From: Candidatus Zixiibacteriota bacterium
Lineage (GTDB): Bacteria > Zixibacteria > MSB-5A5 > UBA10806 > 4484-95
NCBI GenBank assembly: GCA_021159005.1
Contig: JAGGSN010000136.1
Span: forward strand, 8,422-72,421
DNA length: 64,000 nt
Direction of reading: 5' to 3'
Positions within the stretch are counted from its first letter, which is position 1. Each line of letters opens with the position of its first letter. The notes below the pieces were generated by a model. That model saw nothing but the letters and a program-made list of their open reading frames with translations. It was not told the origin of the DNA and did no database searches. The position numbers and the translations under genes are program-made. Below, piece after piece: positions 26,184-28,506 of the stretch.

Positions 26184-26201
26184 TGCCGGAGGTGGGATTC
26201 G
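26184..26201. repeat. 18-bp exact direct repeat (TGCCGGAGGTGGGATTCG) of the 3' end (discriminator, acceptor stem and T-stem) of tRNA-Leu at 28423-28440
   Basis: Exact match read in the sequence, same orientation, 2.2 kb from the tRNA. It looks like an att-like scar. Confidence 0.6.
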
Positions 26202-26285
26202 GTTCTAAAATATGTAATATAGAATATAGAGTTACGGTAACTGGGACATAATTGGGATGGTTATTGTCTTTTTTTTGTCAATCCC

Positions 26286-28235
26286 TTATTCCTTATTACT
26301 AATTTTAAAGCGTTGTTCACAATTCGGCCAGCCATCAGGCGCTTCAGCCGGCAACTCATCAGGAGTTAGCCAGGCCGGTTCATAATCAGTGCAATATTCA
26401 ATAGTGTTTATTCCCTTGAAATAATTAACCAACCTGGTAACATCGCTGCCAATGATATTGCAATCGCCATTAGCGTCAGCAGAAGCCCAGAAGCCTCCTA
26501 AAAAACACGGCATGCTGGAAGAAGAACCTCTGAAATAATTAACTAAGTAGATTACATCACTGCCAATGATCGTAGGCGGCCAGAGACCGTTTGCCATATT
26601 TACATCGCCGGGAAGATATGCGAGAATCGAAATCGAATCGACTAACTCAAATTCTTGAATCTGCGACCATTCTGACCATAGCAGATTTTGGTTTCTATAC
26701 CTGATGCGCCACCAGTATGTCTGGTCAAGTTGTAGTATTCCATTTTCTACTGATAGCTGAGTCAAATCAATACCCTCATTAAGATCGATTGGTTCATAAA
26801 ATGGCGGGCCGCTATCACCGTATATGTTTTCCCAATCCCGAACGCTCTCCACAATTGGACTTGACCAATCATTCTGAACTTCCGTTAGTTGGAAATGAGA
26901 ACTCATAATTGGCTCAGTGCCGACATCATAAGCAGAACCCATTAATGTAACCGGTTCAATTGCCTGGCGCGCCGGTTCTAAGGCATAAGGAGTTTCCGGC
27001 GGTTCACTGTTTCTATCACGGCCAAAGGAGTCAAATAGGACGTTATTCATTGGCATATCTTCATGTCCAAGAGAGTAGCTGCGAGCCATATAAGATTTAT
27101 TAGTATTATCTATTTCTACTAATGTATAGCCATAATAATCATGAGCGCGATGAATCTCGGGGTAATCCGTTTGATTGTCGTACATGCCCCATCGAGCTAA
27201 AGCGCATCCACCGCCGCCTTGAAGTATTATCCTCAAATTGCTTTCCAAGCTGGCGCCGCGTTCATAGTTATGGGAATGCCCATAAAAGAATAATTCAACC
27301 TTTTCAAACTGAGACAGCAAAGGTATAACTTCATCTTGAGTCCAGGCAGTATTGCCATTAGGCCAGATTTCGCTGTGTCCCGGGTGATGAACAAATACAA
27401 TAATCCAATCGATTTCATCATTATTATCCGAATCATTAAGCAGCTCCTCCAGCCAGTTAATCTGAGTTGCTCCCTGCGTATTGCTGTTAAGCGCTATAAA
27501 TAACACCGAGCTAATTCGAAAAGAGTAATATAATTCGCCTTCAGACCCTCCGATTATTTCATATTTCATGTAATCATAATAATAGCTTGCCTCTGCTTCG
27601 TGATTGCCAATGCTAACCATAAAAGGTACTTGAGGTGATACCGAATTAATAGGATTAAAGAATTCAGCAACATACTGAGGTAATGATAAGCCATTGCCTA
27701 CAATATCGCCAACATTGAGGATAACATTAATCTGATGATATACAGAATCGCCGTACAACTCAATAACCTTAGTTCGCATAGCATTTATAACTTCCGTATG
27801 CTGGGCTATGTATGTTCTGGTATCGCCAATAACTGCAAATCTAATATCAACGTCTTCGCTATTTAAAGGTTGCGAATGAAATGTTTCTATTATTGATACT
27901 GCCGTATCGCTAACGCAGCGGTAATAATAGTCTGTATTAGGCTCAAGGTTTGTCAGTCTTACAAAGTTCCAGATTGTAGCCTCATCGAAAAAATGATAAT
28001 CGCCGGTTTGTGAGAATCCTAAGGCCGGAGTAGTTCCGTATTCTACCATTGGTTCGGTAGAGTCGGCTGAATGCCAGCAGACATATATTGAATTGGGCGT
28101 CGGTGTTTGCAAGTAGGGGGACATATGCGCCAATAGCTCTGTTGATGAAAAAAGCGCAGCAGAGATTATTATAACAATTATAATTATTTCAGGCGCGTAA
28201 AATCTATCAAATTTAATCATATTTAATCCTCTCAA
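26286..28235 (-). CDS. secreted purple-acid-phosphatase-like metallophosphoesterase with a dockerin-like C-terminal domain (subtype A, ..APDGWPNCE..)
   Basis: N-terminal anchor, then a PAP N-terminal Fn3-like region (PTPNSIYVCWHS). Metallophosphatase motifs: RFAVIGDTRT, NVGDIVGNG, VSIGNHEAE, FVHHPGHSE, FYGHSHNYERG. The C-terminus reads YLPGDVNMANGLWPPTIIGSDVIYLVNYFRG ... ADANGDCNIIGSDVTRLVNYFKG. Confidence 0.85.
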   Translation of the reverse strand: MRGLNMIKFDRFYAPEIIIIVIIISAALFSSTELLAHMSPYLQTPTPNSIYVCWHSADSTEPMVEYGTTPALGFSQTGDYHFFDEATIWNFVRLTNLEPNTDYYYRCVSDTAVSIIETFHSQPLNSEDVDIRFAVIGDTRTYIAQHTEVINAMRTKVIELYGDSVYHQINVILNVGDIVGNGLSLPQYVAEFFNPINSVSPQVPFMVSIGNHEAEASYYYDYMKYEIIGGSEGELYYSFRISSVLFIALNSNTQGATQINWLEELLNDSDNNDEIDWIIVFVHHPGHSEIWPNGNTAWTQDEVIPLLSQFEKVELFFYGHSHNYERGASLESNLRIILQGGGGCALARWGMYDNQTDYPEIHRAHDYYGYTLVEIDNTNKSYMARSYSLGHEDMPMNNVLFDSFGRDRNSEPPETPYALEPARQAIEPVTLMGSAYDVGTEPIMSSHFQLTEVQNDWSSPIVESVRDWENIYGDSGPPFYEPIDLNEGIDLTQLSVENGILQLDQTYWWRIRYRNQNLLWSEWSQIQEFELVDSISILAYLPGDVNMANGLWPPTIIGSDVIYLVNYFRGSSSSMPCFLGGFWASADANGDCNIIGSDVTRLVNYFKGINTIEYCTDYEPAWLTPDELPAEAPDGWPNCEQRFKISNKE

Positions 28236-28422
28236 CAGTTAAGACTATATCTTTAAGCTAGCAAGTTAACTTCTAATCTTATAATAAACCTAATCAAGGG
28301 ATAAAGCAAGTAGAAATATTTATAAATGTTGTCAAATATCAATGAGTAATTACACGGTTAATTGCCTGTAATTCAATGCGATAGTGTTGTACTCCAATAA
28401 TTTACTTAAGACTGAAATCAAC

Positions 28423-28506
28423 TGCCGGAGGTGGGATTCGAACCCACACGATCTTGCGAACACTGCGCCCTGAACACAGCGTGTCTGCCAATTCCACCAC
28501 TCCGGC
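28423..28506 (-). tRNA. tRNA-Leu (anticodon CAG), class II with a long variable arm; no encoded CCA
   Basis: The reverse complement folds as GCCGGAG-TG-GTGGAATTGGCAGACAC-G-CTGTG/TTCAGGG/CGCAG-variable arm-GTGGGTTCGAATCCCAC-CTCCGGC-A. The anticodon loop is UUCAGGG. Confidence 0.85.

Follow-up and report, generated by a model that had tools for sequence, protein, structure and literature searches.

An island that integrates site-specifically into a tRNA gene splits it and supplies the sequence that makes it whole again, while the fragment that is displaced comes to mark the distal end of the island (PMC4383910). Of the 3,919 islands in the Islander collection, 1,836 are of the T-stem/junction type, and the Islander criteria set length limits of 2-200 kb and require a tyrosine integrase in or overlapping the interval (PMC4383910). 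One case at a tRNA-Leu gene is PAI II536 of uropathogenic Escherichia coli, which lies at leuX and is flanked by 18-bp direct repeats (PMC9686529). Decayed elements of another kind are the cis-mobilizable elements (CIMEs), derived from integrative and conjugative elements (ICEs) or integrative and mobilizable elements (IMEs), which have kept attL and attR and lost the genes for integration and transfer (PMC5704250). The locus described here lies in a 64,000-nt stretch of DNA (the window) from Candidatus Zixiibacteriota (GCA_021159005.1, contig JAGGSN010000136.1, positions 8,422-72,421). In it, an 18-nt direct repeat of the 3' end of a tRNA-Leu(CAG) gene brackets a 2.2-kb segment (the islet) that carries a single gene, for a secreted purple-acid-phosphatase-like enzyme.

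When the whole window is searched, TGCCGGAGGTGGGATTCG is found in two exact copies on the + strand, one forming the 3' end of the tRNA gene and the other 2,221 bp downstream in the same orientation (Table 1). The initial annotation had placed the repeat at these two sites, and exact matching together with ARAGORN and Rfam confirms it. Read in the direction of the tRNA, the 18-mer is CGAATCCCACCTCCGGCA: the final 5 T-loop nucleotides come first, followed by the 3' strands of the T stem and of the acceptor stem and then by the discriminator A. The gene itself does not include the CCA end. The identity between the copies is limited on one side by the exact 3' end of the tRNA and on the other by a point inside the T loop, and a fragment start in the T loop is one of the two common crossover classes. 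No remaining tRNA sequence and no degenerate second tRNA were found at the distal copy, nor were more tRNA-Leu remnants found anywhere in the window. The distal copy sits between positions 25986 and 26286, where there is no tRNA or Rfam match. A role for it as a structured RNA or terminator was considered and rejected on its fold z-score of -0.56 and the lack of an Rfam match.

That the repeat arose by chance, serves as a functional motif or comes from faulty assembly is suggested by nothing but its shortness. However, only about 2x10^-6 exact 18-mers are expected by chance per window, as the earlier description of a chance match as negligible implied. With up to 3 mismatches allowed, the window still holds just two matches, against an expectation of 0.05, and none of 100 shuffled sequences contained two. 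The distal copy belongs to no RNA family and has no stable fold. Eight contigs of the same species, drawn from at least three assemblies (JGI, ENA and Logan; samples JGI 3300016457, ENA ERZ23499350/ERZ23499370 and SRR14000038), share more than 99.9% identity with the window, and every one of them has both copies. Because these independent assemblies agree, the arrangement is not an assembly artefact, and this group of explanations is effectively refuted.

The interpretation that we favor, with moderate confidence, is that the copy at 26184-26201 is a displaced 3' fragment of the tRNA-Leu(CAG) gene, left by site-specific integration (an att scar). A circular DNA carrying the same core would have recombined with the tRNA gene within its T-loop/acceptor portion, by a reaction like that of tyrosine integrases; the incoming DNA would have rebuilt the tRNA 3' end (28423-28440) and moved the original end 2.2 kb downstream. 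An integrase would in that case have made the repeat, and the segment would be gained rather than ancestral. The empty site is then predicted to have the junction ...AAGAATTAACAA-TGCCGGAGGTGGGATTCG-AACCCACACGATC..., and the excised circle the junction ...GACTGAAATCAAC-TGCCGGAGGTGGGATTCG-GTTCTAAAATATG.... Since the islet contains no recombinase, it would be either the stump of a larger island after loss of the integrase, a loss whose course we infer, or a minimal element moved by an integrase acting in trans. Besides being small and integrase-less, the islet is probably old.

Comparison with the Islander islands brings out both the strength and the peculiarity of the case. An intact tRNA gene and its cognate fragment lie on one replicon (28423-28506 and 26184-26201), and the fragment is a 3' end that starts in the T-loop/T-stem region, lies downstream in the same orientation, and is clear of any conserved protein domain and of any full-length tRNA. 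The start-to-start length of 2,239 bp is just above the 2-kb minimum. The claim in the initial annotation that the geometry is that of a tRNA-targeted integrative element is supported. The islet differs from Islander islands in having no integrase (for which Islander would reject it), a single cargo gene and no compositional anomaly.

The likeness to PAI II536 consists in the target, a tRNA-Leu 3' end, and in the length of the direct repeat, 18 bp. P4-family integrases target the same tRNA end as PAI II536. That island is about 100 kb long, with a P4-type integrase and demonstrable excision, whereas the islet is 2.2 kb long, integrase-less and from another phylum. In functional terms, the islet also resembles a CIME, and we take it for a decayed or minimal tRNA islet. 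Identical 18-nt cores are present both at the tRNA 3' end and at the distal position, where attL and attR would be expected, and the interval contains no recombinase, relaxase or transfer genes. It differs from the described CIMEs in lacking ICE/IME remnant genes and in being far smaller. No remnant was found, nor any related element in viral, phage and plasmid collections, and we know of no related ICE in Zixibacteria. Membership of the CIME class is not established, because neither an ICE/IME remnant nor a parent element was found.

Table 1. Features of the tRNA-Leu(CAG) locus and its surroundings (window coordinates)
Feature	Coordinates	Strand	Basis
tRNA-Leu(CAG), intact, 84 nt; putative integration target; its final 18 nt are repeat copy 1	28423..28506	-	ARAGORN; Rfam tRNA, 48.9 bits
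Repeat copy 1, putative attL-side core, tRNA nt 67-84	28423..28440	-	sequence match
Repeat copy 2, putative attR-side core, probable displaced tRNA-Leu 3' fragment, intergenic	26184..26201	-	sequence match; fold z-score -0.56; no Rfam match
Islet, 2,221 bp: one gene, with non-coding flanks of 84 nt and 187 nt	26202..28422	-	sequence; open reading frame list
Cargo gene, purple-acid-phosphatase-like metallophosphoesterase, 644 aa	26286..28220	-	Pfam; homologues; dockerin comparisons
Promoter-like site TTGATA-16-AATATT, within islet, upstream of cargo gene	28315..28342	-	consensus match only
M14 - C25 - C25 dockerin-peptidase cluster, then HlyD/MacB/ABC genes, conserved in relatives	12330..25290	-	synteny
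M14 promoter-like site TTGACA-17-TAAATT, common to L014, L015, L018 and L105	25537..25565	-	consensus/alignment
Window-specific AT-rich spacer, distal repeat to M14 promoter, no counterpart in relatives	25566..26183	-	comparison
Intrinsic terminator of upstream 785-aa gene, kept in L008	28662..28697	-	comparison
tRNA-Gly(CCC) and start of 13.2-kb island	56890..64000	+	tRNA call; repeat; gene content

Recombinase genes are missing from the immediate surroundings as well. None was found among the window open reading frames (ORFs) of at least 120 aa or at the left end of the 80.5-kb contig from which the window was taken, and the earlier statement that the window has no integrase is thus upheld; the tyrosine integrase of the contig lies outside, in a tRNA-Gly island described below. 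No mobile-element remnant was found in the cargo gene or in the 84-nt and 187-nt non-coding flanks within the islet, the former being the distance from the cargo stop codon to the distal repeat and the latter that from the tRNA to the cargo gene.

The same geometry would arise if a staggered cut were repaired after insertion, and the repeat might accordingly be a target-site duplication made by a transposition-like event, such as the insertion of a cut-and-paste element, casposon-like or otherwise, that targets tRNA 3' ends, rather than the work of a conservative site-specific recombinase. Casposons generate duplications of about 14-15 bp, and some of them target tRNA-Leu 3' ends. However, the islet ends are not terminal inverted repeats (one begins GTTCTAAAAT..., and the reverse complement of the other begins GTTGATTTCA...), the islet has no transposase, Cas1 or polymerase gene, and to our knowledge 18 bp exceeds the duplications made by such elements. 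The sole inverted repeat flanking the islet is a perfect 12-nt pair (ATAGTTAGTTGT / ACAACTAACTAT), located at 26141-26152, outside the distal 18-mer, and at 28586-28597, upstream of the tRNA; because about one such pair is expected per 6-kb region, it is treated as chance. A target-site duplication is thus very improbable. Integron cassettes are similar to the islet in being single-gene units without a recombinase of their own. They differ in their attC hairpins, in the attI site beside an integron integrase, in being usually promoterless and in not residing at tRNA genes, and none of these traits is seen here: the window has no integrase, and no significant hairpin was detected downstream of the cargo gene, where no dedicated attC model was used.

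The cargo is the sole credible gene between the two copies. A single bracketed gene had been predicted from the outset, and only its start needs correction, from a mechanical TTG start at 28235 to the ATG at 28220. The product has Pur_ac_phosph_N and Metallophos domains (Pfam), a signal/anchor N-terminus and a C-terminal dockerin-like module of the Zixibacteria type that takes up the final 114 aa or so (26289-26630). Homologues of the catalytic part reach at most 61% identity; those with names, a minority of the matches, come from several other phyla of the Fibrobacteres-Chlorobi-Bacteroidetes (FCB) group and in no case from Zixibacteria. Most of the homologues are 800-940 aa long, with an N-terminal extension of about 250 aa and with FlgD-Ig, PKD or type IX secretion tails; the cargo protein lacks the N-terminal extension and the FlgD-Ig/type IX tails and has the dockerin instead.

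The dockerin module has a different set of relatives. Its best matches are at the C-terminus of the second C25 peptidase in related Zixibacteria, with 65-68% amino acid identity and about 70% DNA identity over 303 nt (L018 12541-12858, L014 9448-9765, L015 21901-22221 and L105 22459-22788). Identity to the other dockerin proteins of the window is 51-63%, and the module is nearer to the second C25 peptidase of the relatives than to the 1772-aa C25 peptidase of the window itself (51%). No match to the module was found in any of 80 metagenomic loci with phosphatase homologues. These comparisons suggest that dockerin modules are shuffled between enzyme genes, and the cargo gene looks like a mosaic made within the lineage. 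A phage or plasmid vehicle for the cargo was considered and rejected, the phage records giving no match and the plasmid matches all being below 29% identity.

Related Zixibacteria contigs allow the surroundings of the islet to be compared across lineages. The M14-C25-C25 peptidase genes followed by HlyD/MacB/ABC genes are kept in L014, L015-L017, L018 and L105. The gene order in L014 and L015-L017 is a tetratricopeptide repeat (TPR) gene, a tRNA-Leu gene in the same orientation, and then M14-C25-C25. The distance from the tRNA-Leu end to the conserved promoter, GTTGACA-17-TAAATT, is only 217 nt in L014 and 168 nt in L015-L017, and this interval contains neither a phosphatase gene nor the 61-aa ORF found in the window. 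The corresponding distances to the M14 promoter in the window are 618 nt for the 18-nt fragment and 2,857 nt for the intact tRNA. The interval is filled differently again in L105 (Zixibacteria GCA_024231855.1, JAAEQD010000016.1), where a 742-aa leucine-rich repeat (LRR)/Roc-COR gene of the Ras-like GTPase type occupies 6987-10001 between tRNA-Leu(CAA) and M14, on the opposite strand and with its start 20 nt from the tRNA end. A search for tRNA repeats flanking this gene gave none above 9 nt. Because the L105 interval holds a different single gene, the interval appears to be a site of repeated gene gain; judged from these alignments, the tRNA-Leu-to-M14 interval is a hot spot of gain and loss.

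A number of observations weigh against an integration scar. The relatives with tRNA-Leu beside M14 are distant, their M14 proteins being 59-62% identical to that of the window compared with 70-82% among themselves. The M14-adjacent tRNA in these relatives is the CAA isoacceptor and not CAG, and the 5' flank of the tRNA is the TPR gene there versus a gene for a 785-aa protein in the window. That gene belongs to an overlapping pair of dockerin genes (878 and 785 aa, window 28746-33736), which is kept in L008 and L009-L013 at 57-82% identity; a tRNA always comes next, but in the relatives it is tRNA-Arg(CCT) and in the window tRNA-Leu(CAG). At least one additional rearrangement is therefore needed to connect the window with its relatives. 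A closer relative did not emerge, either from the genome collection (no match with the M14 protein or the exact tRNA) or from the metagenome collection (none with the exact tRNA). No empty-site or excised form was found among the eight species contigs, all of which are filled. Searches with Pfam and PHROGs covering the islet, the window and the vicinity of the tRNA gave no integrase, no remnant of one and no further gene of mobile elements, so that the integrase that Islander demands is lacking and the only gene of the islet is the phosphatase. The rebuilt 289-nt attP-like segment has no excess of arm-type repeats over shuffled sequences. Finally, the cargo gene shows no compositional foreignness in GC, GC3 (GC at third codon positions), codon usage or tetranucleotides.

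The last point also bears on the source of the islet. The initial annotation had singled out the composition of 26200-28420, and the cargo gene proves typical of the window, with a GC of 0.413, a GC3 of 0.377, a codon-usage distance of 0.102 and a tetranucleotide correlation of 0.842 (rank 15 of 56 windows compared). Because the composition is host-like and the dockerin is of the host type, the donor would have been a related organism, or else the event is old. The source would then lie within the Zixibacteria lineage, and the islet would not be a recent arrival from far away.

The broken synteny leaves room for a quite different history. An ancestral tRNA-Leu gene next to M14 would have been truncated in the T loop when a block consisting of the 878-aa gene, the 785-aa gene, tRNA-Leu(CAG) and the phosphatase gene arrived, and the 18-mer would be its stump. 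The identity of the copies would then reflect the shared 3' ends of two Leu genes and not an att duplication. This explanation stays alive because an extra rearrangement separates the window from its relatives, and it draws on the tRNA-Leu gene found at the same place and orientation upstream of M14 in three related lineages, as well as on the change of isoacceptor and 5' neighbor at the window tRNA. The CAA and CAG genes share an acceptor stem and have similar D arms but diverge in the T stem and in the anticodon and variable arms; over the final 18 nt they show just 2-3 differences. However, those differences favor the local gene. The stump matches the CAG gene at 18/18 positions, compared with 16/18 for the CAA genes of L014 and L105 and 15/18 for that of L015: at two positions where the CAA 3' ends of all three differ, the 18-mer carries the CAG-type base, and L015 has a third difference. 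A break in the T loop, the classical crossover site, would also be a coincidence, as would a stump lying downstream of and parallel to a tRNA with the identical ending, and the other 66 nt of the supposed gene left no trace. We regard a truncated second tRNA as the main rival, and as rather unlikely.

The att-scar interpretation advanced in the initial annotation is thus partly supported, by the displaced 3' fragment and by synteny; the synteny itself agrees in that tRNA-Leu lies directly upstream of M14-C25-C25 in relatives, and disagrees in that these are distant, carry the CAA isoacceptor and have a non-syntenic 5' flank. The part that fails is the idea of cassette exchange, taken up below.

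The same contig provides a second tRNA-associated island, of more conventional form. Its tRNA-Gly(CCC) gene is at 56890-56961, and the island ends about 6.1 kb past the window (as seen in L006, 3434-16720, and in L007). The flanking repeat, 50 nt long, combines 47 nt of the tRNA 3' end with 3 further nt and extends as far as the anticodon loop. The genes are a 155-aa ORF, HsdM/HsdS/HsdR (type I restriction-modification), a PD-(D/E)XK protein, an 852-aa primase/VapE-like protein, small ORFs and a tyrosine integrase, and their GC is low, at 0.30-0.41. The 291-aa integrase, which is the sole integrase on the 80.5-kb contig, is located 40 nt from the distal tRNA-Gly copy and about 6.5 kb past the right end of the window. 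Because this island, with its 50-nt repeat and integrase, is on the same contig, the lineage evidently hosts tRNA-integrating elements. It shares with the tRNA-Leu islet the genome and the order tRNA - island - 3' fragment, and differs in its 13.2-kb size, 50-nt repeat, integrase and low GC, compared with 2.2 kb and a T-loop crossover at tRNA-Leu. The tRNA-Gly integrase itself was considered as the maker of the islet and found unlikely, given its 50-nt repeat, its anticodon-loop crossover class and its other tRNA.

The initial annotation had gone further and taken the islet as a hint that members of the secreted-enzyme repertoire are exchanged as cassettes. The data do not bear this out. Among the 80 metagenomic loci with phosphatase homologues (739 kb), a tRNA was found in 1 and a tRNA repeat in 0, and no other dockerin gene in the window is bracketed by the 18-mer. 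The native composition of the cargo and its dockerin, of the Zixibacteria type shared with the neighboring peptidases, likewise lend the idea no support. In its broadest form, the proposal is that Zixibacteria move exoenzyme genes around one at a time, each as a minimal cassette of one gene and a non-coding stretch of attP size that has no integrase and enters a tRNA 3' end by means of one provided in trans; this is a long shot. If it were true, tRNA-adjacent slots would be a cassette site for the dockerin-tagged secretome, and the insertions after tRNA-Arg in L009 and after tRNA-Leu in L105 would be older cases with eroded repeats.

A narrower version holds that the 2.2-kb unit is a still-mobile minimal cassette using a tRNA-Leu-specific integrase from elsewhere in the genome or from a helper element. 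In its favor are the perfect repeats, the compactness of the unit, a promoter-like site belonging to the cargo, and the closeness of the 187 + 18 + 84 = 289 nt of non-coding DNA to the roughly 250 bp quoted for attP sites. Relatives also have small integrase-less insertions right after tRNAs (2,194 nt at tRNA-Arg in L009, a single gene at tRNA-Leu in L105). Yet a circular or empty form was seen in 0 of the 8 contigs, the 289-nt segment has no outstanding arm-type repeats, and no tRNA repeat longer than 9 nt accompanies the insertions in relatives. The phosphatase homologues in the 80 loci are not tRNA-linked, no copy of the unit was found in phage or plasmid collections, and viral contigs contained no tRNA-Leu-type attP. 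Continued mobility of the unit is accordingly improbable.

The search of viral contigs for a tRNA-Leu-type attP or integrase returned five matches to the 18-mer, all of them tRNA-Leu genes, phage-encoded or intron-containing, and this candidate source was dropped. One viral contig of 391 kb (L021, IMGVR_UViG_3300014205_000001) has the 18-mer at the end of a tRNA-like gene with an insert of about 90 nt (2930-3075), which ARAGORN does not call.

If the att-scar interpretation is right, the islet is a base-resolution record of one route by which a secreted phosphatase gene entered a dockerin-enzyme cluster in an uncultivated Zixibacteria lineage, at a slot between tRNA-Leu and the M14/C25 cluster that is filled differently between lineages. 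Island finders that require an integrase would miss scars of this kind, and annotators could take the fragment for noise. The islet adds an example to a well-understood phenomenon and no new mechanism; it is a real but fairly ordinary scar.

The islet is surrounded by genes of one functional type. Its same-strand neighbors are all dockerin-tagged and secreted: on one side the two C25 peptidases, the M14 carboxypeptidase and the 61-aa ORF, and on the other the 785-aa and 878-aa proteins. Where homologues of the M14 and 785-aa proteins carry names, nearly all belong to candidate division Zixibacteria, and on that basis the organism is taken to belong to this group. On the tRNA side, the nearest relative is L008 (SRR19174375), with 82% identity in the 785-aa protein; its similarity to the window fades just past the terminator of that gene, and its contig ends about 70 nt past the terminator, before any tRNA. 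On the peptidase side, homology with the relatives begins at the M14 promoter-like site.

In these genomes, tRNA genes seem to mark where synteny blocks end. A comparison of L009 (12804-14997) with L013 (6886-6968) shows that 2,194 nt have been inserted or substituted immediately behind tRNA-Arg(CCT) in L009 only. This segment contains two genes (314 and 289 aa) with no Pfam match and no integrase, and its sole repeat, GGGGGTA(G)TTTTT at the distal end, is short and imperfect, which makes the parallel with the islet a weak one.

The DNA between the M14 gene and the distal repeat has a character of its own. The stretch from 25315 to 26183 is AT-rich (GC 0.29-0.35) and lineage-specific. It includes the 61-aa ORF (25801-25986), which encodes a four-cysteine zinc ribbon, is followed by a hairpin and weakly matches phrog_1934 (E = 6.6e-5), a family of unknown function. 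An older insertion, lying outside the bracket, may have left this spacer behind.

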